Origin: a virus
Taxonomy: Duplodnaviria; Caudoviricetes
DNA: 64,000 nucleotides
Virus record (IMG/VR): IMGVR_UViG_3300023267_000001
Location: 1-64,000 of that record
Direction: 5' to 3' (one strand)
Part shown: positions 8,532 through 59,354 of the stretch, one piece after another
Position numbering within the stretch: position 1 is the stretch's first letter
How the letters are laid out: each line of letters starts with the position of its first letter
Program-made: the position numbers and the translations under genes
The notes under the pieces: generated by a model
Database searches by the model: none
Told to the model about the DNA's origin: nothing
What the model saw: only the letters and a program-made list of their open reading frames with translations

Positions 8532-8779
8532 TTTTTACTCTCTTGATGGTCTGCGCCGTGTCCGTGGTATCAATGGCGCATGGAGATGAAGATAATAAAA
8601 CAGCGCATCGGACGAACCCCCAAGCCAATGCGCTGAAAGAAAAACGGCTGGCAAAAGCCAGCCGAGTGTGGGGCAAAACAAACCAAATCAAGTCCCGTCA
8701 GTGTTACTAGCACTGGCGGGACAAAACCAAAGGCCACAACCCTTGGTGTGTATCTTGGAAGATACGGGCACACTCTAGG

Positions 8780-41387: not shown

Positions 41388-41388
41388 T

Positions 41389-43212
41389 TCACGCGGGTAG
41401 TGCCGCAACCTCCGCGTCCAGCTTATACCATTGCGTTTCGCCCCCAATCGCCGGAGTTCCGTCTGCATTCAAAATAGCGATTTCCAGATACAAATAATTC
41501 CCCACTTCCCAAGTGTCCCAATGCATGTTTAAAGACGGAATCAAATTCTGAGCCTCCATCTGCGCAGCAGTCAACGCCTCTGGACATTTAAGGACTACAT
41601 CAGGCTTAATTGTGTGCCACACCACGGAGCAGTAATCCCCATCGTTAGGGTCGGTTAATTGCTCCGAAGTTCCAACCCTCAAGCGCGCGATGCAGGGGTT
41701 GTCTTGAGGTGCGGTATATTGGCCGATAATCACCTTGCGCAAAATCTTGGAGACATCGAACAATCCAACGGGAAGGATTAGGCGAAGGATGCGAGCAAAG
41801 CCACGTTTTTCCCACACCGGATTCGTGATGTTATCCTCAACCGGCTGCGTTGTTTTCTGCGTTACAAATTCACGGAATAGAACTCCGTTCAACTGTTTCA
41901 GCGCGTAATCCACGTTTGAAGCCGCGACCAATAGTTGAAGCGTGTTGCAGTCAGCGGTGCCGGTCGGATTCGGGATATAGCAGCACAGCGAGCTAAATCC
42001 TGAATCCAGATAATATCCGGTCAAAAACTTGGTGTTGAAAACCATCGTCTGATTATTTGTGCAGGTTCCCGTCGAAGGCCAGCTTACAAAGATTTCATTC
42101 GTTATCGGTTTGAATGTGGCGACCATTGAATTACAGCAGTTCGCATTCACTTTGCGCGTTTTATCCGCGTAGATAAGCCCGCTGGCCTGTCGCAGCCATT
42201 CTGATGGCTCTGGTTTTGGCGCATACTGGTTGTAGGTGTAAAACGATTCTCGCGCTCCGTAATAAAGATTTTCGCCATCAGATACAAGAGAGTCAGGATA
42301 AACCAGACAACCCTTGAAGTTCTCCGGCTCGGTATAGACGCGCGCGAAAGACAGCGCGGTATTAGCCACGGCATCCACTGACACTGTGCTTCGCCAGATG
42401 GATTTCTGCGTGAAGATATAGAGGTATTGCGTCAACTCAATCGCGGCTAATATTTGCTCGCCGCCTCCAAGGTCTTGAAAGTTAGCCACGGAGTCAGGCG
42501 CGGGTGCCCAGCTTTTCGGCAACGCTAAATCGGAATAACGCACACGGCTGGGATGAGCTTCTCCTGACTCCACGGTGTTCATCAAAATCATCAATCCGCC
42601 GAACTGGATGACCACCTTTGCCTTGGTCAGATGAACGGTGTTCACCAAGTCTGGAATCGGAATGGCTGAACCCGCGCCTAAATCGTAGGAATAAACGCCA
42701 TCCTTGTTGTTGGAGAAAATGACGGTGTTATTGAGAAAATCACCGTGGAATTTAGAGCCACCAGCAATTCCGGTAAGCACGTCAGTCCACAATCCGGTGA
42801 CTTCGTTCAGGTAGGATATTTCTGATTCCGTGCAGGCAAACAGGGTGCGCTTGTTGTCGTTATCCGTGACTTGAAGCATGAAGCTGACTGGCTTGCGGAC
42901 GGGGACACCGCGATAATGGTAATCGAAATTTGTGTAAAAAAGGCAAAGCCATTGACCCCCAGACTCAACCACGCGGCCCCCATCTTCACAAATTAGTTGG
43001 TCGCGCGTTGGTGCGGTGTGCGTTACCACCTCGTAGCTGGCAAGAAACCGTTCAAACCCAGCCTCGTTAGTGAGTCGGCCATTTTCGTTGACCGGCCAGT
43101 TTTGTTTCTCGCGGAAACCGCCATCAGGAAGCTCGGTGGCGCGCGGGCGGGCGTCGAGCGGGCCGGTAAGCGGACTTAAACTTACCACTTGAAAACGTGA
43201 TTTAGAGGCCAT
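41389..43212 (-). CDS. putative tail nozzle / packaged-DNA stabilisation protein (tail tubular B-like)
   Basis: 607-aa beta-propeller-like pattern (SRVRYSD..P.SW, IYIFTQKSIW, GCL..PDSLV); position in the morphogenesis operon. Confidence 0.55.
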   Translation of the reverse strand: MASKSRFQVVSLSPLTGPLDARPRATELPDGGFREKQNWPVNENGRLTNEAGFERFLASYEVVTHTAPTRDQLICEDGGRVVESGGQWLCLFYTNFDYHYRGVPVRKPVSFMLQVTDNDNKRTLFACTESEISYLNEVTGLWTDVLTGIAGGSKFHGDFLNNTVIFSNNKDGVYSYDLGAGSAIPIPDLVNTVHLTKAKVVIQFGGLMILMNTVESGEAHPSRVRYSDLALPKSWAPAPDSVANFQDLGGGEQILAAIELTQYLYIFTQKSIWRSTVSVDAVANTALSFARVYTEPENFKGCLVYPDSLVSDGENLYYGARESFYTYNQYAPKPEPSEWLRQASGLIYADKTRKVNANCCNSMVATFKPITNEIFVSWPSTGTCTNNQTMVFNTKFLTGYYLDSGFSSLCCYIPNPTGTADCNTLQLLVAASNVDYALKQLNGVLFREFVTQKTTQPVEDNITNPVWEKRGFARILRLILPVGLFDVSKILRKVIIGQYTAPQDNPCIARLRVGTSEQLTDPNDGDYCSVVWHTIKPDVVLKCPEALTAAQMEAQNLIPSLNMHWDTWEVGNYLYLEIAILNADGTPAIGGETQWYKLDAEVAALPA

Positions 43213-43253
43213 TTCCGCTACAATAGCGGGACATTCTCATTTATTCAACCCCA

Positions 43254-44177
43254 TTACTGCATCGGAATGTTGAACTTCTGCTGGAGCCAAGCGACATCGC
43301 GCGTGAACATGCCCTTGTTTTTTAGCTTTTCTGACTCAACCAACCGCCAGTCTTTGCGGATGTCCTCTTGGGCAAGGTTCATCTCAGAGCAGCGCGGCAT
43401 GGCGGCAATCATGCGCGTTTGCATGTCCTCTGGAAAGATGGTGTTTATGAGAAATAATTTATTATACAGCAGGGTTTGTAGGCCGTTGTGGAAGGGCAGC
43501 TTTTCGCCGTCACGGAAGCGATGCCAGACTACAAAGTTTTTAATCAGGCGGACATCCGAGCCAGTGAGGTAAAACTTGAGGGCCATCAACTGCTCCTCAA
43601 CACCCCAAGTTTTAAGGTGATTCATTCCAACGATTACTGGAAATCTTTCACGCGGCGAAACGTAGCAGGCTCCCATAGGCGACGACAACTCAACGCCGTC
43701 ATCCTGCTCTTTGGCCCAGACAGCTTCGAGAACCTGCATCCGGTTATGATTTGGGTCTTTTCCGATGAACTGTAAGTCTGCGCCGTAATAGACACCGGAC
43801 GGATTTCCGAAAGGTTTTATGGTGGGTGCAAAACCCTTGCAGACACCACATAGCAATGAGTCTGGGAACTTCTCAATTCCAGCCATTACATGCTCCAGCC
43901 AGCCGTGGGTGAACCGGCAATGACTGTCACACATAACCATGTAGTCGCCGGTTGCGATTTGCGCCCCAATGTGGCGGGACGCACCGCTGCCGATACGGTA
44001 AAGGTTGCGATGAACCTTGACGTTTAAGTGCGGTGGGAATATCAGCGTCGCCGCGCTGCAATCATCGACCGCGACAATCTCCACTTCTTCGCCAGCAGTC
44101 CCCCGAATTGACATGGCGGTGGCAACAGCTTCGACCTGTTGGTTTACGGACGGGAATACAACGGAGATTTTAATCAT
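43254..44177 (-). CDS. GT-A glycosyltransferase resembling polypeptide GalNAc-transferases (GT2/GT27-like)
   Basis: ISVVFPS, VDDCS, MCDSHCRF..GWLE (DxH), WGVEEQLMALKFYLTG...VVWHRFR. Confidence 0.8.
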   Translation of the reverse strand: MIKISVVFPSVNQQVEAVATAMSIRGTAGEEVEIVAVDDCSAATLIFPPHLNVKVHRNLYRIGSGASRHIGAQIATGDYMVMCDSHCRFTHGWLEHVMAGIEKFPDSLLCGVCKGFAPTIKPFGNPSGVYYGADLQFIGKDPNHNRMQVLEAVWAKEQDDGVELSSPMGACYVSPRERFPVIVGMNHLKTWGVEEQLMALKFYLTGSDVRLIKNFVVWHRFRDGEKLPFHNGLQTLLYNKLFLINTIFPEDMQTRMIAAMPRCSEMNLAQEDIRKDWRLVESEKLKNKGMFTRDVAWLQQKFNIPMQ

Positions 44178-44929
44178 AACTTTTTCAAAACCGCAGTCGG
44201 GCTTGCGAACGGAAAGAACTCGGTCGCCATGCACGGAAATTTCTCGTGACGTTGGAGCTTTAACCATGAATCCACCAAGCCTTTATATCCATAAAAATTC
44301 TCTTTGTAAATTAACTGCTCCTTGGTGGCGTAAGAAAAATGGTCAAACACAAGGCCCAATCTAGCTGATTCGTCAGCAGACATAAATGAACCCTTGTTAC
44401 CATTTAAGCTTGGAGGTTCGTGAACTACTCCGACCATACCCGGCCTAAATCTCCAGAAGCGCAGCCAAGAATTATTGCGGTCTGATTCAGGGTCAACGTA
44501 AATATCCTTGCCGTAGAAATAACGGCACTTGAGATACATGCGCGCAATGGACTGCTCCAAAAATATGTCATGGATTTTGCGAAGCTGTTTGGCGGTGTAA
44601 ATCTCGTCGGAGTCAATCTGACCAAGCAAGCAGGGCTGCTGAATGTTGTTTATGGCTATCTGACACATTTCGTCTTTACCACCAGACCACCACTGACGAT
44701 TAAAAACTTTAACGCGAGGGTGGTTGGAGATGGAGTTTAAAAATTCTGTTGTTCCGTCTTTGCTCAGGCGAGGTTCTTGTTTTTGACACCATTTTGTCGA
44801 GCCAGTGTTGGCAGCGGCCCCATGTGAAACATACCAAAAAAAATCCAATCCAGATTCCTCAAATATGGGAAGCTGCATTTTTATGTATGGCATGGAATCC
44901 AATGCCAGAGTGTAAAATACAACTTTCAA
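44174..44929 (-). CDS. GT2-like glycosyltransferase
   Basis: SKDGTTEFL, GQIDSDEIY (DxD), VHEPP, FDHFSY. Confidence 0.75.
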   Translation of the reverse strand: MKVVFYTLALDSMPYIKMQLPIFEESGLDFFWYVSHGAAANTGSTKWCQKQEPRLSKDGTTEFLNSISNHPRVKVFNRQWWSGGKDEMCQIAINNIQQPCLLGQIDSDEIYTAKQLRKIHDIFLEQSIARMYLKCRYFYGKDIYVDPESDRNNSWLRFWRFRPGMVGVVHEPPSLNGNKGSFMSADESARLGLVFDHFSYATKEQLIYKENFYGYKGLVDSWLKLQRHEKFPCMATEFFPFASPTAVLKKL

Positions 44930-45615
44930 ATCATTCCTCTGGATTTTAATTCAGCCATCTCGTCGTCAGTGATTTTCTGCAAATAAAAGCATTCGTCATC
45001 AAAATTAACCGGCCTCTGACGGTCGTAGCCAAATGAGAACTGTTTGAACTTGTTTGGATATGCGGCCATCAACCGAACGTATTTAGCTTCCGGCAAATTC
45101 TGATGCGTCTCCTTGCCGCACGATAGATAAAGCCTGCAAAATTCAAGGATGAAGGAATGTTTAACAAGGAACAATGATTGCGCGGCTGGCATCACTTTCA
45201 ACTTCCCAAAGATGCAACCGGCGTCACCGATTTCTTCATACATTTTGTCAAGACATGGGCCGAACCAAAGGCAATCCTGCTCTTTGAAAATAAAGTCTTT
45301 TTCCTCATTGTAGGCAATCATTGCCAAAATCAGTATGGAAGCCGACCAGCCGCATATCTCATGGTTTTTAAAAGGTGGCTCGATACCAATCAGACCATGA
45401 ACGTGACCAAGATTGCCTTTGATTGGAATCAAATTAACCATCGGCTGCGAAGGATTTAGCGTGCATCCTCCAACACCCAAAACATGGATTGCAGCAGGGT
45501 TTGAATACTGCAATGTGTTTCTCAGCCAAGTGTTAAAAAACCACTGTGCTTGGACTTCGCCAGCGGGCTTGTAGAAGAAGCCAGAGCCGATGACATACTG
45601 GTTATCGTGATTCAT
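44926..45615 (-). CDS. putative GT-A glycosyltransferase
   Basis: GWSASIL..AMIAY...FIFKEQDCLWFG resembles a DxD-region strand; cluster context; start moved to ATG 45615. Confidence 0.5.
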   Translation of the reverse strand: MNHDNQYVIGSGFFYKPAGEVQAQWFFNTWLRNTLQYSNPAAIHVLGVGGCTLNPSQPMVNLIPIKGNLGHVHGLIGIEPPFKNHEICGWSASILILAMIAYNEEKDFIFKEQDCLWFGPCLDKMYEEIGDAGCIFGKLKVMPAAQSLFLVKHSFILEFCRLYLSCGKETHQNLPEAKYVRLMAAYPNKFKQFSFGYDRQRPVNFDDECFYLQKITDDEMAELKSRGMI

Positions 45616-45619
45616 AATT

Positions 45620-46429
45620 TTATTCCCAATCAATCTCCGGCGTTTCCGGTGCTTTAACTGCACCAACCAGCCACGCAACAAACGGCATCGCCTGCGTCAT
45701 TCTGCCGGGGAAGTGAATCACACACGGGCGTGAACCGCTCTTTAAAACCACAGGCGCATCATCGCGACTCTTGGTGAAATCGTATTCGTTAAACGGCGTG
45801 TTCGAGAAATGGTTGAAAACCCGCTGCTCAAAGTCCACGCGCAATGGAAATGCGTGTTCGACGTAGGCAACCTGCCACATGTGCTGGTCGTTGCTGTATA
45901 AAGGTGGATGACTGCTGGCAATCCTGTCCTCTTTTACGAGCTTGGACAACGCCACCATGCGCGCGTAAGCCACGTTAAACGATTCACGGTTTGCCATCCA
46001 TGCGCCAGCATTGATGTAATCGAATCCAGAGGCATGTTTTCCGAATCGTGCCGCCCAAGCTGGGTCGATGTGGTGGGCGCACATCGACGAGCCTGAAATC
46101 AGCATCGGCCAGCCAATCGCGTTGAACTCGTCGCAGATGGATTGCAGCGACCTAACAAATATGCAGTCGCGCGCATCGACGTAGAGGATGAATTTCACCG
46201 ATTCCGGCAGGGAATCAATCTTGGGCTTCAACCGAGTCAGCTTCATCTCGAAACTGTTGTCGATTTCGATGGTGTTGTATTCGTAGCGCTCACCACGCAT
46301 GAAGGAAATCAGGTTGATGCCCTGCGTCTTGGCCGATTGTTGCATGAATCCAGCGGTGGATGGAACGTCTTGCTTGCGTTCGTATGCAAGAATGCTGACC
46401 ACGGAGGTATTTTCGGGGGTTGCAATCAT
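45620..46429 (-). CDS. PLOD-type (procollagen galactosyl/glucosyltransferase-like) GT domain
   Basis: ILYVDARDCIF, YINAGAWMA, NDQHMW, LRVDFEQRVF, VIHFPG. Confidence 0.7.
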   Translation of the reverse strand: MIATPENTSVVSILAYERKQDVPSTAGFMQQSAKTQGINLISFMRGERYEYNTIEIDNSFEMKLTRLKPKIDSLPESVKFILYVDARDCIFVRSLQSICDEFNAIGWPMLISGSSMCAHHIDPAWAARFGKHASGFDYINAGAWMANRESFNVAYARMVALSKLVKEDRIASSHPPLYSNDQHMWQVAYVEHAFPLRVDFEQRVFNHFSNTPFNEYDFTKSRDDAPVVLKSGSRPCVIHFPGRMTQAMPFVAWLVGAVKAPETPEIDWE

Positions 46430-47022
46430 TTTTTTGGTAGCCAACTTCCTGACCAATGGTGAATCGCGTAACTATCCTGATGCGCCAATCGTTCATGTGC
46501 TGGCGAGTCATGCAGGAACGGGTAAAAGAACTCTGTCGGCAGAATCGTAACGCCTTCTCGTGGCGCGCGCGTAGCGATATAGACTCCAAATGCCGCGTCT
46601 TGAGTCTTTAGCGCATCTTCATTCTCAATCTGCCAACGAATCCAAGGATGGCCTGCTGACGCCCCTAGGATTGCATTACAGACGCGGCCAACATCTTTCT
46701 CAAACATGATTTTGTCCTGCAATGCGCAGAACGCACTCAAGTCCAGAAGCGTGTCGAATGGTTTTAAAACCTCCACATCAGAATCGAGATACACGCCCCC
46801 AAATTTATCCAGAGCGTGAAGCCTGACAATGTTTGAAAGGCTGGCAAAATTCTGACAGTCGGACATCAGCGCGTTGTAATCCAGCCCAAGGTCGGCGATG
46901 TTGTTTTCATTCCAGTAGAAAATCTCCCAATCTTGATGATGCTTGAGCGCGGTTTTGCGACATCGTTCAGAGGGGGCATCGAGCGAACCGAAATGCACAA
47001 AATGTAGGTTTTTTGGAATCAT
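46426..47022 (-). CDS. GT32 (OCH1/DxD sugar-binding) glycosyltransferase
   Basis: IPKNLHFVHFG, SNIVRLHAL.KFGGVYLDSDVE, NAILGA..GHPWI, YAIHHWSGSW. Confidence 0.9.
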   Translation of the reverse strand: MIPKNLHFVHFGSLDAPSERCRKTALKHHQDWEIFYWNENNIADLGLDYNALMSDCQNFASLSNIVRLHALDKFGGVYLDSDVEVLKPFDTLLDLSAFCALQDKIMFEKDVGRVCNAILGASAGHPWIRWQIENEDALKTQDAAFGVYIATRAPREGVTILPTEFFYPFLHDSPAHERLAHQDSYAIHHWSGSWLPKK

Positions 47023-47591
47023 TAGATTTTACGCAGGCAGAACGACGGGAACTCCTCTTCGCTGACGGCCACGAGTTTCCAGTCAGTTTCTTTGCAGAAT
47101 TGGGCGACTGCTTTTTGGACTCCCCAACCGTATTTAACAGCCGTCGGATGGTCATCGCAGAAGTCGTGGCCCATTATTGACGCCGAGGGGGACATAACTC
47201 TTGACCACGCCCGAAGGTCGGCTAGAACGGAATCGTAATCGTGCGCGGCATCTAAAAAAACACCGTCAAACGTCACCCTGTTTTCAAAAGCCATTTCAGC
47301 GGCCCCAAGCGAATCCATTCTCATTATGGCATATCTGCCGCCATGCCTGTGGCCTTGGATATTTTCCAGTGTTTCAAGATAGTTCGCCTCGTGGTCAACT
47401 GACGGGTCGGCAAGCGGGTCATTGTAATCATCGCGCTTTCTCCAGCTATCTACGAGCCAGACATGATTCAAGTTTGGCAGGCTTAAAATCTCGTTTGAGA
47501 AATATCCGCGCCAAACTCCGACTTCTGCGATGCTGGAGCCTTTGGGCAAACTCGCAATCATTTCAATCCGCGTCTTGAATTTTTGAATCAT
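47022..47591 (-). CDS. class I SAM methyltransferase (Methyltransf_24-like)
   Basis: AEVGVWRGYFS, FDGVFLDAAHDY..V..DL, GHDF, GV.KAV. Confidence 0.9.
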   Translation of the reverse strand: MIQKFKTRIEMIASLPKGSSIAEVGVWRGYFSNEILSLPNLNHVWLVDSWRKRDDYNDPLADPSVDHEANYLETLENIQGHRHGGRYAIMRMDSLGAAEMAFENRVTFDGVFLDAAHDYDSVLADLRAWSRVMSPSASIMGHDFCDDHPTAVKYGWGVQKAVAQFCKETDWKLVAVSEEEFPSFCLRKI

Positions 47592-48124
47592 AACTTTTGA
47601 AACGCGATGAAGCTGTCGGCAGAGTCGAATTTGGGCATTAGGTTTCTAATTCCATCGGCCTGCAATTCCTTAATCGCTTTCGTCCCACCTTCAAACATAG
47701 GGTTTCCATTGTCGTGAAAGCTGAAAATACCACCATTAACCAAAGCTGGAAAGAATTTATCAAACACGGCAATCGTGTCATCGTAGGTGTGAGAATGGTC
47801 AACAAAAATAAAACTCAGCCCCGTCTCCTGTTTCAACTCCGTCTTGTTGAAATCCTCGTTCAGAATATCAACCTGTCCAGCGTGTCCGTGTCGCACGAGA
47901 TTGGCGAACAGCGTATCGCACTGACCTTGCTCGATGCAGATAAGCCGCTTGTCAGACCGCAGGACGGAGCAGATTACCAATGCGCTTAAACCGTTCAGCG
48001 AACCGATTTCAAGCGCGTGGCCGTCAAGGTGCGCCGTGGCTAGAACGCAGCGTTGGATGGCCTGACGTTCACCCTCGGTTAAATAACCAAGGACTTCTGG
48101 AAATTTGCCGGAGGAGTTTTTCAT
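47588..48124 (-). CDS. class I SAM methyltransferase (Methyltransf_24-like)
   Basis: LEIGSLNGLS, FIFVDHSHTY, L.NGG..SFHD. Confidence 0.9.
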   Translation of the reverse strand: MKNSSGKFPEVLGYLTEGERQAIQRCVLATAHLDGHALEIGSLNGLSALVICSVLRSDKRLICIEQGQCDTLFANLVRHGHAGQVDILNEDFNKTELKQETGLSFIFVDHSHTYDDTIAVFDKFFPALVNGGIFSFHDNGNPMFEGGTKAIKELQADGIRNLMPKFDSADSFIAFQKL

Positions 48125-48504
48125 ACAATAAACCTCCAGACTGCCCAGATGGTTACGATATGCCAGACGTTATCGACCACAATCATGCTCCACGGCGCAC
48201 ATGGGCCGGTGCGAAATTTGTGTTGTCCGATTAAATCCATCCACCAAGAAATGATGTTGGTGCGGTCTTGGATAAAGTGAGTCCAGAAAAGAATTTGCCA
48301 AGTCCATGCCGCGTTGCCAGTCCATAATGGAGTCAACCAATTATCCCATCCAGCAAACAGGCAAACAGTGATTGACCATATCAATGCATGAACACAACAA
48401 TGAAATGAGCTTTTCTTTTTGTTAAGGGCTTGCCAATCATTTTGAAGCAGGTAGTCGCCGACAAGGTGGCCGATGATGGCGAGCGTTAGGGTGTTTTGAT
48501 TCAT
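48121..48504 (-). CDS. DUF3307-like membrane protein
   Basis: HLVGDYLLQ..WQA..K, H...H, HF.QD, DN.WH. Confidence 0.8.
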   Translation of the reverse strand: MNQNTLTLAIIGHLVGDYLLQNDWQALNKKKSSFHCCVHALIWSITVCLFAGWDNWLTPLWTGNAAWTWQILFWTHFIQDRTNIISWWMDLIGQHKFRTGPCAPWSMIVVDNVWHIVTIWAVWRFIV

Positions 48505-48953
48505 TTTGTCAGGCGGAATCTGGCAGATTCCAGTTCATCTTTGGCTTCTCCGATTACGCGCCAATGGCCATAAATGGCGGGTCGTTTTCCATCACCATCA
48601 ATGTCGCGCGCGATGTCTCGGAATCCGGCCAAGGAAAGAAACGAGGCGAGAGATTGTTCTGTCCAAAAACTTAAATGCCCATGACCCAATAAAATATCTC
48701 TGGCATGGTCTGGCTCCAGTCGGTCAACAACAGGGCAGGAAATATGCAGCAATCCTCCAGATTTAAGGATTCTCCTTGCCTCAATAAGAAACCTGAAAAA
48801 GTCTTGGGGCGCACAGTGTTCCCCGCAGTGTTCAAGAAGAACCTCTTGCACTGATTCAGATTCGTATGGCAGCGGCTTTGTTATGTCAACCTCAGCGTCG
48901 TGGTTATTCCAGCCTTCAAGCTGATTGCCTCCAGAGCCGAATTGAATTTTCAT
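48501..48953 (-). CDS. class I SAM methyltransferase (type 11-like)
   Basis: IQFGSGGNQLEGWNNHD, LPY.SESV..V..EH..EH, RILKSGGLL.I..P. Confidence 0.85.
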   Translation of the reverse strand: MKIQFGSGGNQLEGWNNHDAEVDITKPLPYESESVQEVLLEHCGEHCAPQDFFRFLIEARRILKSGGLLHISCPVVDRLEPDHARDILLGHGHLSFWTEQSLASFLSLAGFRDIARDIDGDGKRPAIYGHWRVIGEAKDELESARFRLTK

Positions 48954-48986
48954 AATTCAGAGAGTGCCAAAAGTGGCGTTGTCTTG

Positions 48987-49694
48987 TCAACCAACTTTAT
49001 GAAAAATCTCCGCGTATGGAAAAGTTAAAACCCAAGGCTTCCAGTCTGGAACCTCGTTTCGCATTTTCATAATCGCCTCAACCATGCGCGTATTTTCAGG
49101 AGATTGACGCGGAAGATTACAGCGCGCGTCGGGAACCACACCGGCAAAACGGATGATGTTCGCGGCCAGATTCCGCTTCATAAATCCGGCAGGCTGGATG
49201 CGCTTTTCAAACTCGCCGTCGTTTCCGTAAGTGCCGACGAATCTTTCATCGTGACCACCGATTTCCCAGAACGCTTTTTTGGTCAGGAACCAAGAATTTT
49301 TGTGCGGAGGATTCGGTTTCATGTCGGGGTATTGCATTCGGCTGAAAGTATAAACCGCCTTTGGGTCGAAGTTTCCATAAACCAGATACTCCATTGTTTC
49401 CACGGGAACAACATGGTCGATGTCCGTCATTAAAAGCCAGTCTCCAGAAGCCTTGGCAGCAGCGAGGTTTCGGCAGAATTGCCAGTTCCAAAGCGCGTCG
49501 ATTCCGGTTCTGAAAAAACGCGATTTCAGATTTAGACTGGGGACGACAAGCGGATGCTTCGGCGAACAATCGTCGGTCACAATGAGTTCAAGCTTTGAGC
49601 GGATGTCCTCTGGATAGCCGATTATGACCTTTAGCTGATGCTCGAGCATCAGTGGATTATCGTAAAACGGAAAAGTTAAAGTGAGCCGGTTCAT
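48987..49694 (-). CDS. GT2 glycosyltransferase
   Basis: LT.PFYDNP.ML, IVTDDCSP, CRNLAA, LMTDIDH, GGHDERF.G.YG.D.EF; start moved to 49694. Confidence 0.85.
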   Translation of the reverse strand: MNRLTLTFPFYDNPLMLEHQLKVIIGYPEDIRSKLELIVTDDCSPKHPLVVPSLNLKSRFFRTGIDALWNWQFCRNLAAAKASGDWLLMTDIDHVVPVETMEYLVYGNFDPKAVYTFSRMQYPDMKPNPPHKNSWFLTKKAFWEIGGHDERFVGTYGNDGEFEKRIQPAGFMKRNLAANIIRFAGVVPDARCNLPRQSPENTRMVEAIMKMRNEVPDWKPWVLTFPYAEIFHKVG

Positions 49695-50668
49695 AAAAAG
49701 GGAATGGATTCCAGAATGAAACCGCAAGCCCCTCTGTGTCCTCCACCGCCATGTTTTTTAGCTATGGCAGAAAGGTCTATGCCGGTGTTATGTCGCGCAT
49801 GATAGAGTGAAAAAATGTAGCGCGCGCCATCGTAATAAAAACCCATTAAAGCATCGTGGCCTGTCTTTGGCACATCTTTTGAGCTAAACGTCAAGCTGTT
49901 GAACCTGATTGAATTTAGGCATAGAAATTTCAATCCTTCCCATTCAACTAAAAAGCTTCGCTCCATTGCGCCCCTGTCAATACTGCGCTGGTATTCTTGC
50001 AGCAATGCGCCATCGTCAAGCATGGCCGCAACAGTGCTTGGGATGGAACCCCCGTCCTTCGGAAAGGATAGCAAGTCTCCTTCTTTGACTTGATTATATT
50101 GAAGCATACACCGCCAAGTTTCAGCGTTTAGCTCACGACTTCGCAGCCCAAACTGGAATGTTTCGGCATTGTGGTCGCGTTTGTCCCAGATGTCGTATTC
50201 ACCAGCGAGACGCACGGCGTATGGCTCCAAAACATCTCGGTTTATGAATTGCTCTTTTGTTGGCAGTGTCAGAAAAAATTGTTCATTGCGAGCGTTCTGA
50301 GCATTGTGCTGGTCAATGGAAAAGTATTGCCAAGCCAAGCGGCACGCCGCCACCCCGTCGATACGATAGCCCAAGATGTCAGTGGGATGCGTTTCTATGC
50401 TAGTTTTGTGGTGGTCAATCCAGATAACTCGATTAAGCAAAAATCCTGTTCCGTAAACTTTGTTTTTTGAAAAATCATCAAATCCAAAAACACGGTCAAC
50501 TGGCAAGTCGAGGACATAAACCATGCCTGATTCTGGAAATTTTAGGGGCTTGTCTTTGTAATCCCACCCAATGTATTCAACATCGCTTGTGCCAAGAAAA
50601 TGCTTTGAGACTTCGCGGCAGAAGATTCCATCGAAGTCAGCGGAGTGGTAAATGACAGTTGTTTTCAT
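49691..50668 (-). CDS. DHH/DHHA1 family phosphoesterase
   Basis: YHSADFDG, VLDL, WIDHH, EYDIW, GGGGHRGACGF. Confidence 0.9.
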   Translation of the reverse strand: MKTTVIYHSADFDGIFCREVSKHFLGTSDVEYIGWDYKDKPLKFPESGMVYVLDLPVDRVFGFDDFSKNKVYGTGFLLNRVIWIDHHKTSIETHPTDILGYRIDGVAACRLAWQYFSIDQHNAQNARNEQFFLTLPTKEQFINRDVLEPYAVRLAGEYDIWDKRDHNAETFQFGLRSRELNAETWRCMLQYNQVKEGDLLSFPKDGGSIPSTVAAMLDDGALLQEYQRSIDRGAMERSFLVEWEGLKFLCLNSIRFNSLTFSSKDVPKTGHDALMGFYYDGARYIFSLYHARHNTGIDLSAIAKKHGGGGHRGACGFILESIPFL

Positions 50669-50671
50669 AAT

Positions 50672-53014
50672 TTAAATGCAGTTGTTTTCTGTAAAGTGTA
50701 AATCAGGCAGGTTTTTAGCAGCCCAATCCTTGAAAATCTTGCCGTTGTGCAAATTCGCTGGCGATGTGTGGACATACCCGCTCTTGGCCCAAGCTGACTC
50801 GTGAGAGATGTGAAAAATATAACCCTTGGGACACTCCGCTGGGAAAATATGTTTCAAGAAACTGGCCCTGTCTGACTTTATTCCGTGGTAAAGCCGGATT
50901 AGCGCAGTCATCATAACGTCCCAGTTTGCGGCGGCTAGAATTGGCTCCCCCAACTCATCCCAATGTTTCACCAGCCATGACTTTTTGAAAACAAAAAGGT
51001 CGCGACCAAAGTGGGGTTGCGCGTTTTTTGCCATCTCGACCGGATTCAATGCGCGGGTTGCGACTGCATGTTTAATCTCAACCCTTTGGCTCGAACAGGC
51101 ATCATAAACCGACCCGTAAAAACGAATCATTTCAGGTAAGTCGAGGTGTAGGATATTGTCGTCATTCGTAAAAAAAATTAAATCGTTGTCGTCAGCCTGC
51201 TCCATCGCCATCTTGAGCAAATCTTTCAAATATGGCAATGCGCGCGGCTCACCAATCTCCCGTGCGTCACGCGGATATTTCCACATGTGAACCGGCAACA
51301 CTTTTCCCGTGGCGTAGATGGCATCCCAAGAGTCGTTGCAAGCCCTCTTCCTGTTCGCGGTGTCGATGTTGGTTTCCTCGTGGCGTTCGGTGATGTGGAA
51401 CAGGCGCACGGATGGGGCGGGCTTGATTGGTGTTTTCCCAATCGGGTTTGCCGCGCCATCCCCAAGACTTTTGTGCCACTTATCCGCTGCAATTATTTTA
51501 CCAATGCCTTCAAAAACTCGCTGCTTCGTGGCTTCCGCGTAGGTAATTCGCTCAAAGCAGTTGCAACGCAACATGCTGCCAGCCCAAGGCTGGGGATTCA
51601 CCAACGCCACCACGGGCACGCTAGACGCAGCGGCAAGGTGTAATAGTGCGGTGTCGATACTCACAAGTCCGATGGCGTTATCCATCAGCCCAATGATGTC
51701 ATAAATCTTTTCAGCGCGAACCTTGTCTAAATCAACCACGTTTAAAGATTCGCCGAACGCCTTCTTGATTTCTTCAAGCAGGGCAACTCCACCTGAAAAC
51801 GGCGAACTGACTCCAGACGTGACTTGAACCAATAGCATTGGTTTGTCTGTGGATAACTTGGTGACAAGCTGCGCCTCGCGGTGGGCATCTCGCCGGTCAA
51901 AAACCAAATCCAGCGACGGGTCTTTGAAGCGGTGTTCAAATCCGAGCATTTTCCACGACTGGACATTATAGCTCGCGCATGTTTTCTCTGGCGTATAATT
52001 CTTTCCGTAGATTTGAGCCTGCAACACTATGGGGAACTTTGGACGAGCAATATCCATCGCGGTCAATACGCGGCTGTAATCAATGTCCACGATTTCAGGA
52101 ATGACGTAGCTGACGCCTTCAAGGACGGATGCGAACTCACGGGACACCATCAGGTGAGGCTTGGCGTAGTTTTCAGCGATGTGCTTGCAAATTGGAAGGA
52201 TGTTCACGATGTCTCCAAAGCGGCCCAACTCGACGATGCACACCGGCCATTTATGATTCTTCTTCTGGTTATACGCATCCATAAAATCCTGCATCATCTT
52301 CTTCGGGTCGTGTTCCAGAAACGGCTTCAAAATAATGTCGCCAGTTTTCTCCGAACCAACGCGAATCCTGCGGCGCAAATCTTCGGCAATGCGGTCATGC
52401 GCGGTTTGAAATCCTTTTTTGTCCTCGCCCATGCCGGAGACGTGGTGCGAACCGTTTCCCCAAGAATAGAAGAATGAGATTTCATTATCCACCAGATTGA
52501 AAACGCGGCCAGATAGTTGCGATGTCAGCCTGCCGACAAAATTCCTGTCCTCGCCAACGGTGAACTTATCGGAATATTTTCCAACTTTTTCCCACGCTTT
52601 TTTCGTGAATGCGAAACACGGCATCTGACCACCGACAATCTTGGATATTTTGAACTGCTCGCAAAAAAATTGCTTGTCGAGATGGACCCAGTTATGACCA
52701 CCTTCAAATCCTGCGGCAAAGTTGCGCAGGTGGTTTTCGCCAAAAATATCGTCATCGTCATAAGTCACGATATGCGTTCCATCCGCGTGCTCAACAGCGA
52801 TATTGCGCGCGGCTCCAAGCGAGATTGGCCGCTCTTTCAGATTGATTATTTTGACGTTCTGAAAGTCGCCGTAAAGCGTTTGCTGTGGGCAGGTATTCAG
52901 GATTAAAAGCTGCGACTTGCCATCGTATTTCTGGTTTAGGAAACAGGCGATGGCTTGTTCGAGGAATTTAACTCTCCCAAAAGTGACGCAGGCTGCGGTT
53001 ATGAATGGATTCAT
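50672..53014 (-). CDS. three-domain glycosyltransferase (GT2 + GT9-like GT-B + GT-A-like)
   Basis: CVTFGR..LEQAI..F..Q, YDDDD, GEDRNF; then LGRFGDIVNILP and VSIDTALLHLAAA; then FFTNDD. Confidence 0.8.
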   Translation of the reverse strand: MNPFITAACVTFGRVKFLEQAIACFLNQKYDGKSQLLILNTCPQQTLYGDFQNVKIINLKERPISLGAARNIAVEHADGTHIVTYDDDDIFGENHLRNFAAGFEGGHNWVHLDKQFFCEQFKISKIVGGQMPCFAFTKKAWEKVGKYSDKFTVGEDRNFVGRLTSQLSGRVFNLVDNEISFFYSWGNGSHHVSGMGEDKKGFQTAHDRIAEDLRRRIRVGSEKTGDIILKPFLEHDPKKMMQDFMDAYNQKKNHKWPVCIVELGRFGDIVNILPICKHIAENYAKPHLMVSREFASVLEGVSYVIPEIVDIDYSRVLTAMDIARPKFPIVLQAQIYGKNYTPEKTCASYNVQSWKMLGFEHRFKDPSLDLVFDRRDAHREAQLVTKLSTDKPMLLVQVTSGVSSPFSGGVALLEEIKKAFGESLNVVDLDKVRAEKIYDIIGLMDNAIGLVSIDTALLHLAAASSVPVVALVNPQPWAGSMLRCNCFERITYAEATKQRVFEGIGKIIAADKWHKSLGDGAANPIGKTPIKPAPSVRLFHITERHEETNIDTANRKRACNDSWDAIYATGKVLPVHMWKYPRDAREIGEPRALPYLKDLLKMAMEQADDNDLIFFTNDDNILHLDLPEMIRFYGSVYDACSSQRVEIKHAVATRALNPVEMAKNAQPHFGRDLFVFKKSWLVKHWDELGEPILAAANWDVMMTALIRLYHGIKSDRASFLKHIFPAECPKGYIFHISHESAWAKSGYVHTSPANLHNGKIFKDWAAKNLPDLHFTENNCI

Positions 53015-53067
53015 GCTCGTCCACAGACCATGCCACATTTGGCGGTGTCTAGTCCAGATAATTTATC

Positions 53068-56000
53068 TCAAGAGGACGAGATATTCAGCGACCAAGAACC
53101 AATGGCCCCCGTGTCAGACGAAGAAACATCTTGAACCCACAGAAGCCAGACACCATTCGGATTTTTCCCGATGAATGCAGCCAATGTGAGATTCGGAGTT
53201 CCAGACGGACATGGCAGCGGGAAGGCTGAAAACACTCCGAGTTGCGACGGTTTGAAAGTTCCGCTGACCATTGTGGAGCCAGATATTGAGCTACCAGACG
53301 CGTCGTCCAGAACCAGATTGATTCCAGTCACAGGCACGTTGCCGCCCACGTTGCGTAACACGTTTACCAGTGTTCCATCGGGAGCCATCAAAATTATCGA
53401 AACGTCGTTAGGTCGCTGGTGCTGATAGCCATTGATTGCCAGCGTGACCTTCGTAATCAGGCCAGTTAGCCCACTGACGCAGGCAACGCTCGGATAAGGC
53501 GTTGCCTTGCCAATGTCGTTAATCGTGATTCCATTCGCGCTGATGTCAACGCAGGTGCAACTAATCGCGGCGTCTGCCGCAGCTTTGGCCGCTGCTAATG
53601 CTTGCGTCTGGGCGTCCAGCAGGCTCACCAAGCTCGTATAGTTCGCTGTCTTAGTCACAGACTGGCCGGTTTTACCAATGGGGCAATTCGCGGTGTAGGA
53701 TTCCGTCGCGGTGTAGGCGTTGATGCACTGAATCGCAGCTTGGGCGGCGGCAAGCGCGGAGTTGTAAGCCTTGGTGTCAGCGTCGGCCTGAGAGATTAAA
53801 CTGGTTGCCGTGGCTGATTTGCACAGTTCTGGCGTGGCTGCGAATGCCAGTCCACCAAAGCTGTAAGCTGTCAGCGTGGTCGTCGACTTGTCATAAACCA
53901 GTTTGAAATACTTGTAGTTAATCGGGTCAAACGTTCCACAGGACGCGATTTGAATCTGTGACGGCCTTGTGATGTCGCCGTTCACATCTGCTGCGAATCC
54001 GCGATTGGATGTGAAGTAAATCTTCGTCCAGTTGACGGCATCATTTGAACCATAGAGCGAAAGCGCAAACTGGTTCGGAGTCGCAATCATCGTGAACGTG
54101 AAGCAGATGATGTTCAGAATAGGTGGCGTGGTGAAATCAAAGTAGGTGCCATCAGAAACCTCAACTTTCACATTCGGGCCAACAGCATCGTTGTCAGCCG
54201 TGACTTGAGTTCCACCACTTGGGCATGTCGCACAAGCCGTCTGGCTGCTGCTGTAGTTCGTTGGCGGCGTGTAGCCACCGGCCTCAATACTTGGCAGCGG
54301 GCTTGGGTCAGGCAACTGGACGCCGGGGGGCGTGTCGAGGCAACCAGAGCCATAGCAGTTGTAACCAGCGGCATAACCATATGTTGCCGGACTTCCGCCG
54401 AACATCTGGAATCCAGAGATAAAGACGTTGAATCCACTGGTCGCCAGTGAAACATTCAGGCGGTAATACGAGAATGCCTGCGTGTTGTTGATTTGAAACC
54501 GCGTCGGCGGCTGGATGCAAGTTGCGTCAGGCCAAGGATAATTCGTCTGGGTGTCCAGTGTAACAAAATTAACGCCGTCATTTGAGCCTTGGAACGTCCA
54601 AGTTTTAGGCCCAAGACTGCAACTGGTCGGGCTTGCGTCATAATCCACGCCCACAAACTCATAGGCGGTGACAAGCTGCGGGGTTTCAAATTTATACTGT
54701 AACCATGCAGGCATCACCGCGCTTTCCCAATAGCTTTGGTGTGGGTCAAACGGGCCAGCGTTAGGAATGCCGCAGAAGGCTTTCCAAGGCTCCATTGAAA
54801 GATTTGGGTCACCATCATGCGAGGGTACATGCGAGCTTGCAGAGGCCACTCCAGACGGCGTGGTGTCGCTCGTCATCGGCGGTATCAGCGCAACCACTCC
54901 GGTTCCGATTGGCACATAGGCTGAACCAATGCCGCAGGCAGGCGGGATGTAGGTTTCGTTCTCGGTTGAAAAGTCGTCAAACAGCAGAGTTTCAATGTTG
55001 GTGGCGTCATCGAATGAAACCGAGTCGAGCAACAATCCTGCGGCGGGAGCAGCAGCGGGAGTTGCGGTCTGCTGAAACCGAATCCAGACATTGACGTTAT
55101 CTGGTGCGACGAATGAGAACGACTGCGGTGTGAATCCCTGCTGATAGTTGTTAATCGTGAATGACTGATTCAGATAATCTACTTGTGAGCCAGTGGTGTT
55201 CTGCGTGGGAACAATCGCGCAGGCTGAAATCGTGTTGAGCAGAATCGCCGCCTGCATGTCGGCCATGTTCATGTGGTCAACATAGACTGGCGCGGTGTTC
55301 GCAATGGTGGCAATCAGGTAGTATGGGCTGTCCGGCGACTGGCCGGTGGTGCGATAGATGTTGATTGCCGTCGCAGATGGATTCGCCGTGGTCTGGACTG
55401 AAATGGTGGCGGTGTCGCCGGTCGGTGTCGCCGATGAAACAGGGCTTCCAATGGTTTCACCATACGCATTGGTGTAGGTGTAAACGTATTTATACGTGGG
55501 TGTGTCGCCCAACGGCGCGCCGGATTCATTCACGGTCAGCGCGGGAGCGATTGATGGATTGGTGAGGCCATCGTTGTTGCGGCCAAAAATCCGCATATTC
55601 ACCGTGTTTGGAGAACCATTGTATCTTTGGTTTCCAGCCAGATTCAAAGACAGGCGATAGTTGTGGCCGGACTGCAACGCAAATGAGTTTTTGGACTCGA
55701 ACTGACCATTGTGCGGCGAGGAGGAGCCAGCGAGGTCAACGTAGAGGCTGTTGTTTGGCAGGAAATCCAATAATCCATTACCAATCAAATCCACGTTTCC
55801 GCCGTAAACATTCCAGTTTTTGAAAGCGCAGTAATCAAGCTGGCCTGTGGCGACGTAGGTATCACCGGCAGGGGTGCAGTTGCCCGCGCAGAGATAGCCC
55901 TTCATGCCGTTGAAAATCTCAATGGCTTCGGCGGCAACAGCGTTGTAGGAGTTTAAGAAGAATCCACCGGATGAGAAAGCCTCCAACAGCGAGAATGGAG

Positions 56001-59284: not shown

Positions 59285-59302
59285 TCAGTTTTGTTTGCAA
59301 TG

Positions 59303-59336
59303 AAAAACAGCGCACCCAACTAAGAGTGCGCTGTTT
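59303..59336 (-). terminator. intrinsic terminator after the major capsid gene
   Basis: AAACAGCGCAC/GTGCGCTGTTT 11-bp stem with a T-run on the minus strand. Confidence 0.8.
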
Positions 59337-59354
59337 AACCCCAACACCGAAAAC

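Follow-up and report, generated by a model that had tools for sequence, protein, structure and literature searches.

An uncultured phage with a complete 76-kb genome carries an island of glycan genes within the operon that builds its particle, and this island probably O-glycosylates virion proteins in the cytoplasm, with a poly-threonine tail on the capsid protein as the acceptor. The island occupies positions 43254–53014 on the minus strand of the window (the whole 64,000-nt stretch of DNA analyzed). With gene starts refined, it consists of 12 tightly coupled genes, g1 to g12, that are joined by seven 4-bp overlaps (ATGA/TTGA), one 1-bp overlap, and three gaps of 3, 4, and 33 bp. The near-continuous arrangement described in the initial annotation was thus borne out, as was its inventory of seven glycosyltransferase (GT) genes, three SAM methyltransferases, one DHH phosphoesterase, and one DUF3307-like membrane protein, which Pfam, PHROGs, Atlas models, and motifs all support. 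The estimate of about nine GT domains is reduced to eight supported domains in the seven genes; the ninth module, at the C terminus of g12, matches no GT assignment. Similarly, 12 genes are indeed coupled, but "twelve-gene system" is an overcount because the DHH and DUF3307 genes are located elsewhere or missing in relatives. The island is the largest phage set of sugar-adding and sugar-methylating enzymes that our comparison could find.

Two virion genes flank the run, and the late operon to which it belongs begins at the portal gene. Upstream (53068–56835, minus strand) lies the gene of a 1255-aa adhesin-like tail protein with Big_2, vWA, discoidin, and P-domain matches in Pfam. This protein matches phrog_17517 (tail protein, E 9e-24), in agreement with the earlier placement, and adjoins the island in most relatives. 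Downstream (41389–43212, minus strand), the final gene of the operon, earlier called a nozzle gene, encodes a 607-aa protein that matches virion structural family phrog_3287 (E 3e-27) and gave no PDB sequence match; its identity as a nozzle is putative. No promoter or terminator signals above chance were found inside the operon, and a hydropathy scan revealed no convincing membrane segments in the GT genes. The absence of nucleotide-sugar synthesis, flippase, and polymerase genes, previously noted for the run, held for the whole genome when assessed by Pfam, PHROGs, and hydropathy; the Pfam scan covered all ORFs of at least 230 aa save the 723- and 369-aa ORFs, which were assessed by PHROGs only.

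The central gene of the island is g1 (43254–44177, minus strand), whose product is a 307-aa soluble GT-A enzyme that is GT27-like, with a Pfam match to GT2 (E 8e-13). When g1 was compared to 177,635 PDB sequences, the top 14 matches were all polypeptide GalNAc-transferases (ppGalNAc-Ts; best E 2.8e-9, residues 52–245). Solely ppGalNAc-Ts were matched down to E 0.007, and the first match outside GT27 appeared at E 0.008. The alignment extends over the catalytic domain with its DxH, WGxEx, and HxFR motifs, and g1 retains the DxH...H metal triad of the animal enzymes while lacking the lectin domain and the membrane anchor that true GT27 enzymes possess. Residues D84, H86, W191, G192, E195, and H219 are invariant in eight g1 homologs. 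The g1 family comprises at least 571 clusters at E ≤ 1e-30, and D-[SAGT]-H was found in 137 of the 149 best representatives. Judging from its sequence, we propose that g1 is the initiating O-glycosyltransferase for poly-Thr tracts.

The proposed acceptor is the major capsid protein (59355–61073, minus strand), which is 572 aa long and ends in GGSG-T6-YH. It is an HK97-fold phage capsid: Foldseek matched it to the VP1 capsid (E 5e-10) and the phicrAss001 capsid (E 1e-7), and VIA Z values were 9.8 and 9.7. The tail (residues 563–572) is disordered in the model. The T6 tract is the sole S/T run of five or more residues in the 24,653-residue proteome, with a chance expectation of ~1e-3 at a Thr frequency of 0.058.

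The initial annotation had suggested examining the co-occurrence of the cassette and acceptor tails across phages, and g1 was found to track the capsid T run. All 13 related records with a g1 homolog have a T5–T9 or ST-rich run past the capsid core, which becomes a linker in capsids with an extra C-terminal domain, while four outgroup genomes (95–100% complete) have neither g1 nor a capsid T run. In every relative with a g1 homolog that is complete enough to judge, a T5–T9 run follows the capsid core, and across ~20 informative relatives, the presence of g1 coincides with that of the capsid tail. Since this co-occurrence lies inside one capsid clade, it represents one or few evolutionary events and hence no independent replication. 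In G017 and G019, g1 stands alone beside the homolog of the 607-aa protein, and the capsids nonetheless carry T5 and T8 runs, respectively. The core of the island in relatives is usually g1 and the large g12, with g1 constant and g12 nearly constant; the remainder is hypervariable, ranging from 1.2 to 11 kb. The other genes are exchanged among close relatives, and related phages therefore probably differ in the glycans that they display. Islands of relatives add SDR nucleotide-sugar epimerase/dehydratases, a stand-alone GT9 gene, GT34 and TOD1-like genes, FkbM-type methyltransferases, and, in G001, an HNH endonuclease gene; neither Wzx, Wzy, nor a priming transferase was found in them. The earlier idea that only host sugars are used fits the phage studied here, whose genome has no nucleotide-sugar genes, but not two relatives that bring their own epimerase/dehydratase.

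Poly-Thr ORFs were also found near g1 in six of nine independent g1-family lineages, in five of them directly upstream of g1. The tracts include a run of ~60 T (L007), runs of 22, 8, and ~50 T (L008), a T6 tail (L014–16), ST-rich tracts (L019), and a 29-T run spanning the terminal-repeat junction (G053). The other three lineages, including G051 (98% complete), have no such tract. Among control loci, which share generic GT2 N-terminal similarity only, such a run was present in 1 of 31. Some of these poly-Thr proteins look fiber-like, showing an RCC1 propeller, a CBM of sialidase-like type, or similarity to tail-fiber J. The adjacency of g1-family and poly-Thr genes in unrelated phages provides further support for virion glycosylation.

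The remaining genes of the run, all on the minus strand, encode additional GTs, the methyltransferases, and two probable passengers. The product of g2 (44174–44929; its TTG start overlaps the g3 stop) is a glycosyltransferase of 251 aa that has a GT-A fold and belongs to a GT2-like viral family. It has neither a Pfam nor a PDB sequence match; the Atlas model aligns (TM 0.93) with a viral cluster, 29% of whose members contain PF00535. The residues D106-x-D108-E109 are invariant, and 9 of 13 relatives have a g2 homolog in their islands. The 229-aa GT-A-fold protein encoded by g3 (44926–45615) belongs to another viral family and likewise has no Pfam or PDB sequence match. Its invariant E112-Q113-D114 and Atlas structure neighbors (Nucleotid_trans, GT8, GT2, and GT34 clusters, TM 0.64–0.69) make it a probable glycosyltransferase by model comparison. 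The initial assignments to GT2, GT32, GT27-like, and GT9-like families were retained, while that of g4 (45620–46429; 269 aa) as a PLOD/LH3-like GT is weak: PF25342 GT_PLOD was matched at E 2.4e-5 and 24.1 bits, under the 27-bit cut-off, and no PDB match was significant. A g4 homolog is present in the G002 island. The 198-aa product of g5 (46426–47022) is a GT32-type glycosyltransferase (PF04488 Gly_transf_sug, E 4e-12) with DSD as its DXD motif at residue 80, and g10 (48987–49694) encodes a 235-aa GT2 enzyme (PF00535, E 2e-5; PF10111, E 1e-5) with DID at residue 91.

Two of the SAM methyltransferases, g6 (47022–47591; PF13578, E 5e-11) and g7 (47588–48124; PF13578, E 1.5e-14, with a weak O-methyltransferase match, PF01596), are of the Methyltransf_24 (TylF/CmcI) type. 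As g6 also weakly matches the rhamnosyl O-methyltransferase RMNT_CmcI, we propose that it is a sugar O-methyltransferase. The third, g9 (48501–48953; 150 aa), is a Methyltransf_11 protein (PF08241, E 4e-5) with a 62% identical homolog in the G001 island. The 127-aa DUF3307 membrane protein g8 (48121–48504; PF11750, E 1e-7; phrog_2470, E 2e-13) is an inconstant member and probably a passenger: the sole homolog found in relatives adjoins the portal gene in G019, and none was found in G001, G002, G004, G013, or G016. The 325-aa DHH/DHHA1 phosphoesterase g11 (49691–50668), which matches phrog_4771 over its full length (E 2e-20) and contains DFDG (DxD), DHH, and GGGH motifs, is a probable passenger as well; its homologs lie 25 to 30 kb away from the islands in G004 and G016 and adjoin g1 in G013.

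The largest gene, g12 (50672–53014), encodes a 780-aa protein of three modules. The N-terminal module (residues 1–245) is a GT2 GT-A domain, as seen from Pfam (E 1e-8) and from an AF2 model with Z 18–19.5 to GT2 enzymes. The middle module (255–513) is GT9-like with a GT-B fold; in the AF2 model, it matched WaaF (1psw, Z 16.3, 238 residues aligned), 3tov (Z 16.2), and the protein heptosyltransferase TibC (Z 13.8), while its sequence statistics are weak (Pfam GT9, E 4e-4; PDB profile, E 0.12). The third module (~540–780) contains an invariant TNDDN motif, exists as its own gene in G002, and has homologs in 47 stand-alone proteins, none with a Pfam match.

We read the gene content, folds, motifs, synteny, and co-occurrence as pointing to the following acceptor, order of steps, donors, and biological role. 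The enzyme g1 would put the first sugar on the six-Thr tail at the capsid C terminus, which is the most likely decorated site and probably lies outside the shell; ~400–500 capsid subunits would then yield an equal number of glycan chains. The chain would be lengthened by g12 together with g2, g3, g4, g5, and g10 using host nucleotide sugars, with the GT9-like domain of g12 hinting at ADP-heptose as one donor, and the three SAM methyltransferases would O-methylate its sugars. This scheme assumes a single glycan on which all seven GTs work, and sequence statistics are weak or missing for g4 as well as for the GT9 domain and the third module of g12. Assembly would occur late in infection, since the genes are translationally coupled and share a strand-continuous operon with portal, capsid, and tail genes; we infer this timing solely from operon position. 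Shielding of virions or mimicry of host glycans is speculation.

Virion glycosylation is favored over both surface conversion and DNA modification by the GT27-like nature of g1, the capsid poly-Thr tail, and their coincidence. The main acceptor could still be another virion or phage protein, the 607-aa or 1255-aa one being candidates, or the GTs could be independent enzymes that share a permissive insertion site, which we regard as possible but rather unlikely. The gene of the 607-aa protein directly follows g1, or is one short ORF off, in 11 of 14 genomes examined, while the capsid gene is 15 kb away; passengers with no relation to glycans can enter the island (DHH, DUF3307, and the HNH endonuclease of G001); and poly-Thr proteins of other lineages look like fibers rather than capsids. 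However, S/T runs in both flanking proteins are four residues long at most, and the capsid T run tracks g1 clade-wide, including where g1 stands alone.

Conversion of the host surface, in which the enzymes remodel LPS, capsule, or another envelope glycan, e.g., against superinfection or to keep released virions from sticking to debris, appears improbable. The genome yielded no gene for a priming phosphoglycosyltransferase, flippase, polymerase, ligase, or ABC exporter, and in the hydropathy scan, all ORFs had at most three hydrophobic, membrane-like segments. The integrase is also absent, which excludes lysogenic conversion and, together with the lack of lipid-carrier machinery, argues against surface conversion. 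The combination of GT2, GT9, and GT32 enzymes with sugar O-methyltransferases is typical for LPS and capsule loci, and PHROGs annotate a GT2 of L008, an unrelated locus, as Gtr-like. The DUF3307 membrane protein inside the run could be taken in the same sense, but its gene is unlinked to the island in relatives, and the island itself sits in the late structural operon. The classic role of phage GTs is glucosylation of hydroxymethyl-pyrimidines, and the GTs and methyltransferases could accordingly build a glycan on modified DNA bases to evade restriction. Reports describe a diversity of DNA glycans (Pyle 2024, as cited in PMC12619734), and PHROGs label the family matching g6 as "DNA methyltransferase." Nevertheless, we consider DNA hypermodification highly improbable. 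A thymidylate-synthase-like hydroxymethylase was not found in the complete genome, although positive controls worked, and the lack of a hydroxymethyl-pyrimidine enzyme argues against DNA modification. In addition, g6, g7, and g9 have no DPPY-type DNA methylase motif, the actual DNA methylase of the genome lies elsewhere (68927–69694), the island is located in the morphogenesis operon rather than the replication module, and g1 resembles peptide-directed enzymes.

Among 50,697 GenBank phage records, no matches were found to g1, g2, g3, or the capsid protein, and for g12, two uncultured phages gave the only match, a 13% GT2 stretch. With GT9 heptosyltransferases including TibC (1psw, 2h1f, 3tov, and 4rap), the middle domain of g12 shares the GT-B fold (Z 13.6–16.3), and it is colinear with WaaC in the N-terminal G-D...LP and C-terminal DT..HLAAA...P motifs; unlike these enzymes, it is fused between two other modules. 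Eukaryotic GT27 enzymes (6s22, 2d7i, 1xhb, and 2ffu) have in common with g1 the GT-A domain, DxH, the Gal/GalNAc-T motif, and the downstream His ligand. They prefer Thr-rich, Pro-flanked mucin-like tracts, the type of tract that adjoins g1 homologs in phages. In contrast to them, g1 has only 307 aa, no ricin-type lectin domain, signal anchor, or Golgi context, and its identity to them is low (E 2.8e-9), with Pfam placing it in GT2.

In the capsid glycosylation of the chlorovirus PBCV-1 (A064R, A061L, and A111/114R), the virus-encoded GTs are mostly soluble and cytoplasmic, some of them with three domains, and SAM methyltransferases add O-methyl groups to the capsid glycan's terminal sugars, with glycan differences between variants mapping to these genes (PMC9614988). 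Virus-encoded soluble GTs, a three-module enzyme, and SAM methyltransferases are likewise present in our island, a likeness for which we claim no homology; PBCV-1 differs in being a eukaryotic virus with N-linked glycans, a double-jelly-roll capsid, and scattered genes that are expressed early. In mycobacteriophages, C termini of capsid and tail-tube proteins carry glycans (Freeman 2023, as cited in PMC12619734, PMC12363180, and PMC11256854). As far as these citing papers describe them, Che8, Corndog, and Myrna resemble our phage in encoding soluble GTs among structural genes without lipid-carrier machinery. No sequence relationship between the two systems was detected, and they belong to different phage lineages, our capsid being closest to phicrAss001 and VP1. 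In our phage, glycosylation is predicted, with a GT27-like initiator and a run purely of Thr residues as the proposed acceptor. Corndog has an O-methyltransferase gene and three GT genes, located between those for the portal and the protease (PMC4351075); compared to these four genes, our island has 10 glycan genes with eight to nine GT domains, and the Corndog O-methyltransferase is paralleled by three methyltransferases.

The source record comprises 76,042 bp and is rated complete by CheckV; the window covers its first 64 kb. On the minus strand, a late operon extends between about 65.7 and 41.4 kb, divergent from the large terminase gene (65732–67261). The operon opens with a 118-aa ORF, a 798-aa portal-sized protein, a 100-aa ORF, a 446-aa ORF, and the 572-aa capsid protein, followed by a 150-aa ORF, a 666-aa DUF5977-repeat protein, a 1255-aa adhesin-like tail protein, the 12-gene run (g1 to g12, 43254–53014), and a 607-aa virion structural protein, for which PDB sequence/profile searches gave no significant match. 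The initial annotation described the genes of the run as tightly coupled, and this was borne out. With gene starts settled from the DNA itself, seven junctions are 4-bp overlaps (ATGA or TTGA), one is a 1-bp overlap, and the remaining three leave 3, 4, or 33 bp between genes. Over positions 40800–60000, a simple scan revealed no promoter- or terminator-like sites above the shuffled expectation; therefore, there is no sign that the run forms a separate transcription unit. Between g1 and the gene for the 607-aa structural protein, a spacer of 41 bp contains an inverted repeat with an 8-bp stem (43213–43231), which is probably not a terminator, given that the coding strand shows no T-run after it. 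A gene on the opposite strand (33632–40045), convergent with the operon end, encodes a 2137-aa protein that has no match in Pfam or PHROG and is conserved in relatives at 33 to 37% identity; a role as internal or ejection protein is possible. In the early region, a 324-aa ORF (8780–9754) has a short match to an IS1 DDE transposase domain (E 3e-6).

All seven glycosyltransferase (GT) genes that had been proposed in the run (g1 to g5, g10, and g12) were recovered; of the approximately nine GT domains ascribed to them, eight are supported and the ninth is possible. Pfam assigned GT2 to g1, g10, and the N terminus of g12, a GT32-type DXD domain to g5, and, slightly below the cutoff, PLOD-GT to g4, which had no significant match in PDB sequence/profile searches. 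The products of g2 and g3 matched neither Pfam families nor PDB sequences; their Atlas models are GT-A folds, their families are large, almost purely viral, and unnamed, and their acidic motifs (D-x-D-E in g2 and E-Q-D in g3) are invariant among relatives. The three SAM methyltransferases were likewise found by Pfam (Methyltransf_24 for g6 and g7, Methyltransf_11 for g9), as was the DUF3307 protein (g8). The DHH phosphoesterase (g11, DHH/DHHA1) matches phrog_4771 (E 2e-20) and shows DFDG, DHH, and GGGH motifs in its translation; PDB sequence/profile searches with it returned nothing significant.

The g12 product (50672–53014) is modular. The mean pLDDT of its model is 70.5, rising to about 90 in the N domain, where residues 1–208 match GT2 enzymes at Z 18 to 19.5. 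Residues 255–513 adopt a GT-B fold that aligns with WaaF (Z 16.3, 238 residues, rmsd 3.3), 3tov (Z 16.2), the protein heptosyltransferase TibC (Z 13.8), and WaaC (Z 13.6). Motif matches in this domain are colinear with WaaC (E 0.12), and the Pfam GT9 match has E 4e-4. By its model, the middle domain is predicted to be GT9-like, with the CAZy GT9 fold and heptosyltransferase-type N- and C-terminal motifs; ADP-heptose is a putative donor. The last module (about 540–780) carries an invariant TNDDN motif and is a separate gene in one relative. None of its 47 stand-alone homologues is named or belongs to a Pfam family; there was no significant PDB sequence/profile match, and hhalign revealed no relationship to the g2 and g3 families. 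When the whole of g12 was compared with 50,697 GenBank phage records by tblastn, the sole match was a GT2 stretch of 104 residues, found in two uncultured phages.

The gene that closes the run, g1 (43254–44177), encodes the proposed initiating enzyme. In a search against all PDB sequences, its 14 best matches are all animal polypeptide GalNAc-transferases (family GT27), the best at E 2.8e-9 over residues 52–245; the first enzyme of another family appears only at E 0.008. The DxH element of GT27 is present as C-D84-S-H86-C, aligned on L-D-A-H-C of 6s22; WGVEE aligns on WGGEN of the Gal/GalNAc-T motif, and WHRFR on GHVFR/GHIYR, which holds the His of the Mn triad. Residues D84, H86, W191, G192, E195, H219, F221, and R222 are invariant in eight close homologues. 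The protein is 307 aa long, ends with the catalytic domain, and has no hydrophobic segment. Since it has neither the ricin-type lectin domain nor the type II membrane anchor, we refer to it as GT27-like and not as a GT27 member.

When 1.84 billion representatives were searched with a profile, at least 571 clusters (50% identity) fell into the g1 family at E≤1e-30, mostly of 300 to 330 aa and matching end to end, and D-[SAGT]-H occurs in 137 of the 149 best representatives. NCBIfam gave nothing more than weak GT2-type matches to g1. Relatives of g1, g2, and g3 were not detected by tblastn in the 50,697 GenBank phage records at E≤1e-3, the island DNA had no megablast match among GenBank phages, and a first single-query search of viral contigs with g1 returned no related loci. 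A scan of genome contigs with one protein yielded merely generic N-terminal GT2 matches (Streptomyces and others) and was left out of the argument.

The model of the 572-aa protein resembles the capsid proteins of Vibrio phage VP1 (Foldseek E 5e-10) and phicrAss001 (E 1e-7); VIA gave Z 9.8 (238 residues, rmsd 5.2) and Z 9.7, followed by other HK97-fold capsids and encapsulins. On this predicted fold, the protein is the major capsid protein. It has no significant PDB sequence/profile match and no tblastn match among GenBank phages. Its C terminus reads GGSG-TTTTTT-YH, in a tail that is disordered in the model. The T6 tract is the sole Ser/Thr run of five or more residues in the predicted proteome (24,653 residues), the chance expectation of such a run being about 1e-3 with Thr at 5.8%. 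From IMG/VR, we retrieved 60 capsid genes related to this one, and 50 of the records were examined for members of the g1 family. The co-occurrence of cassette and acceptor that the initial annotation had named as a check was found: 13 records contain a g1 homologue of full length, and each of them has a T5–T9 or ST-rich run directly after the conserved end of the capsid core (...ECP..NL.{I/L}EN...). One record, 59% complete, has the tail with no g1 detected, and the four outgroup genomes (capsid identity ≤41%, 95 to 100% complete) have neither g1 nor a T-run. The pattern within the capsid clade may reflect one or a few evolutionary events.

Five related capsids carry an extra DUF5977-like C-terminal domain of about 70 aa, and in all five a T4–T9 run forms the linker; three of them have g1 on the same record and are counted among the 13. 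Capsid proteins of relatives, 644 to 716 aa long, in which poly-Thr tethers an extra domain are encoded at loci L125, L130, L135, and L139. This domain is similar to the DUF5977 repeats of the 666-aa protein (56832–58832; blastp E 1e-12), whose gene lies two genes downstream of the capsid gene in the window. A capsid protein 48% identical to that studied here, ending in ...NATTTTPA, is encoded on a 6-kb contig binned in an uncultured Rhodoferax MAG (L187, CAZZLB010000185.1). This is a weak hint of a betaproteobacterial host; assignment to Rhodoferax was dropped, since one 6-kb contig with a related capsid gene is too weak a lead.

Clustering of g1 homologues at 50% identity gave nine lineages, including unrelated phages. 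In five lineages outside the capsid clade, a poly-Thr tract is encoded immediately upstream of g1. At locus L007, the upstream gene (8069–9991) encodes a Cys-rich protein of 640 aa with an unbroken stretch of about 60 Thr; g1 is followed there by a homologue of the N-terminal GT2 domain of g12, encoded as a stand-alone gene, and then by an RCC1-propeller protein with T7SSTTT. At L008, the product of the upstream gene (8414–9700) is 428 aa long, contains Thr runs of 22, 8, and about 50 residues, and has weak tail-fiber similarity. Loci L014–L016 have a 160-aa upstream protein with T6 at its end, and L019 has ST-rich proteins, one with a sialidase-like carbohydrate-binding module. In G053, a complete 45.5-kb phage, a small ORF with about 29 Thr spans the terminal-repeat junction (L188:1–135 with L013:1–140) and ends TAA-ATG against the start of the g1 homologue. 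The three lineages with no poly-Thr tract are represented by one 98%-complete genome and two fragments. In contrast, among 31 comparison loci with generic N-terminal GT2 similarity only, one has a poly-Thr run. This adjacency across lineages, set against the 31 loci, is the strongest argument that the g1 family may act on poly-Thr tracts of phage proteins. With poly-Thr neighbors in six of the nine lineages, transfer of GalNAc from UDP-GalNAc to Ser/Thr of peptides is a putative activity of g1.

In relatives, the island usually lies between the homologues of the adhesin and the 607-aa protein, and g1 is directly upstream of the latter, or one short ORF off, in 11 of 14 genomes. Two genomes (G017 and G019) are arranged differently, with g1 after terminase-side genes; their islands consist of g1 and a small ORF (1.2 kb), and their capsids keep T5 and T8 runs. 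The island of G016 is g12-x-g2-x-g1 (4.8 kb), and islands elsewhere among relatives span 7 to 11 kb. Of 13 relatives, 11 have all of g12 or its first two modules, 9 have g2, and 4 have g3. Pfam searches with 37 additional genes from the islands of relatives revealed further methyltransferases (Methyltransf_11, FkbM type, and Methyltransf_24), a strong stand-alone GT9 (E 3e-16), and GT34, GT21, TOD1/MUCI70-like, and DUF5672 families; export and lipid-carrier genes were not among the 37. The closest relative, G001, whose capsid is 80% identical, has an epimerase where g4 would be and lacks g8, g10, and g11. Since island content varies between relatives while g1 stays, the island behaves as a glycan locus that is hypervariable except for its fixed initiator. 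Within the closest relative's island lies a gene for an HNH endonuclease (HNH_3, E 5e-8; L002:4233–4790), which suggests that mobile elements insert preferentially into the island.

The run does contain 12 genes, but g8 and g11 are probably passengers in it. Homologues of the DHH gene (55% identical) lie about 25 to 30 kb from the islands in G004 and G016 and adjoin g1 in G013. The sole DUF3307 homologue in relatives adjoins the portal gene in G019; five other relatives have none. Because these homologues are mostly away from the islands or absent, we do not count g8 and g11 in the pathway; a DHH enzyme serving it, e.g., by clearing nucleotide by-products, was dropped given the distances in G004 and G016. 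The DHH gene moves among close relatives (49691–50668 here; G004:60403–61254; G016:38007–38966; L180:17891–18805).

If the island served host-surface conversion, it would be expected to come with membrane machinery and a temperate lifestyle. Pfam was run on all genome ORFs of at least 230 aa, except for the 723-aa and 369-aa ORFs, which were scanned by PHROGs only. In agreement with the initial annotation, these scans detected no nucleotide-sugar enzyme, flippase, or polymerase in the genome, nor a priming transferase or ligase. Against surface conversion, priming transferase, flippase/polymerase, and GtrA/GtrC genes were absent from the island, the rest of the genome, and the 37 island genes of relatives; no ORF has more than three hydrophobic, membrane-like segments, and the GTs look soluble. 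Tyrosine integrase (PF00589) was not found either, with positive controls detected in 14 of 14 cases. DNA hypermodification, a second alternative, would need an attachment point such as a 5-hydroxymethyl-pyrimidine, and the corresponding thymidylate-synthase-fold enzyme (PF00303) was not found in the complete 76-kb record (controls positive in 10 of 14). The (D/N/S)PP(Y/F) motif of DNA amino-methylases is absent from g6, g7, and g9, and the N6/N4 DNA methylase of the genome (68927–69694) lies outside the island.

A third reading has the island acting on another virion acceptor or being a non-unitary collection of enzymes. Set beside these rivals, cytoplasmic O-glycosylation of the capsid threonine tail is the best-supported interpretation of the comparative sequence data. 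Assembly of a glycan on virion proteins, as initially proposed, is backed by comparative genomics; its methylation, acceptor, donors, timing, and order of steps are what we infer. In the proposed O-glycosylation of the tail, g1 would start the chain on the capsid threonines, g12 and the other GTs would lengthen it from nucleotide sugars supplied by the host, and methyl groups would be added by g6, g7, and g9; the products would be made alongside the structural proteins. Reliance on host sugars alone fits this genome, which has no nucleotide-sugar enzyme, but not the group as a whole, since the islands of G001 and G004 carry an SDR nucleotide-sugar epimerase/dehydratase.

More tentatively, and with rather less than even confidence, we propose that phages other than actinobacteriophages have their own mucin-type-like O-glycosylation. 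Encoded poly-threonine "tags" on capsid, fiber, or small decoration proteins would be recognized by a large GT27-like family, whose small, soluble enzymes form at least 571 clusters at 50% identity, and hypervariable GT/methyltransferase islands would build lineage-specific methylated glycans there. If so, virion "glycotypes" would be a widespread, fast-diversifying layer of phage surface biology, and animal mucin-initiating enzymes would have close mechanistic counterparts, possibly relatives, in the virosphere. For the island studied here, if the proposed O-glycosylation is right, virion glycosylation would extend to an unrelated group of uncultured phages with capsids closest to those of phicrAss001 and VP1, a poly-threonine tag plus a GT27-like initiator would constitute a simple, testable code, and close relatives would bear different glycans, since their extending enzymes are swapped. 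This would matter for phage encounters with mucus, biofilm matrices, grazers, and immune systems, as well as for interpreting virion proteomics and for producing phage particles coated with glycans, or tagged proteins, by bacterial engineering. The island also offers a compact source of at least eight uncharacterized GT domains and three sugar methyltransferases.

To our knowledge, virion glycosylation has been proven experimentally in mycobacteriophages only, where it alters antibody recognition. Our literature searches returned no description of a phage GT27-like enzyme or of poly-threonine glycosylation tags. PBCV-1, a chlorovirus in which soluble three-domain GTs and methyltransferases build an O-methylated capsid glycan, is a functional parallel to the present island (PMC9614988). 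The closest known system is that of mycobacteriophages. Corndog carries an O-methyltransferase, two GTs, and a GlcNAc-transferase–like gene between its portal and protease genes, and capsid modification was suspected by the authors (PMC4351075); according to later papers quoting Freeman 2023, glycans are located on the C termini of mycobacteriophage capsid and tail-tube proteins. The two systems share phage GTs, with or without an O-methyltransferase, in or beside the structural operon and the absence of lipid-carrier machinery; as a putative C-terminal acceptor, the present phage has the conserved, acceptor-like T6 capsid tail. They differ in that tblastn of g1, g2, g3, and g12 found no homology to Che8 or Corndog (50,697 records, expected to include mycobacteriophages), and the present island is two to three times larger, with a GT27-like initiator and a homopolymeric Thr acceptor. 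By analogy, the island would work like a mycobacteriophage-type system to which it is unrelated in sequence, and its size, its variability, and its tag-plus-initiator logic are what make it notable.
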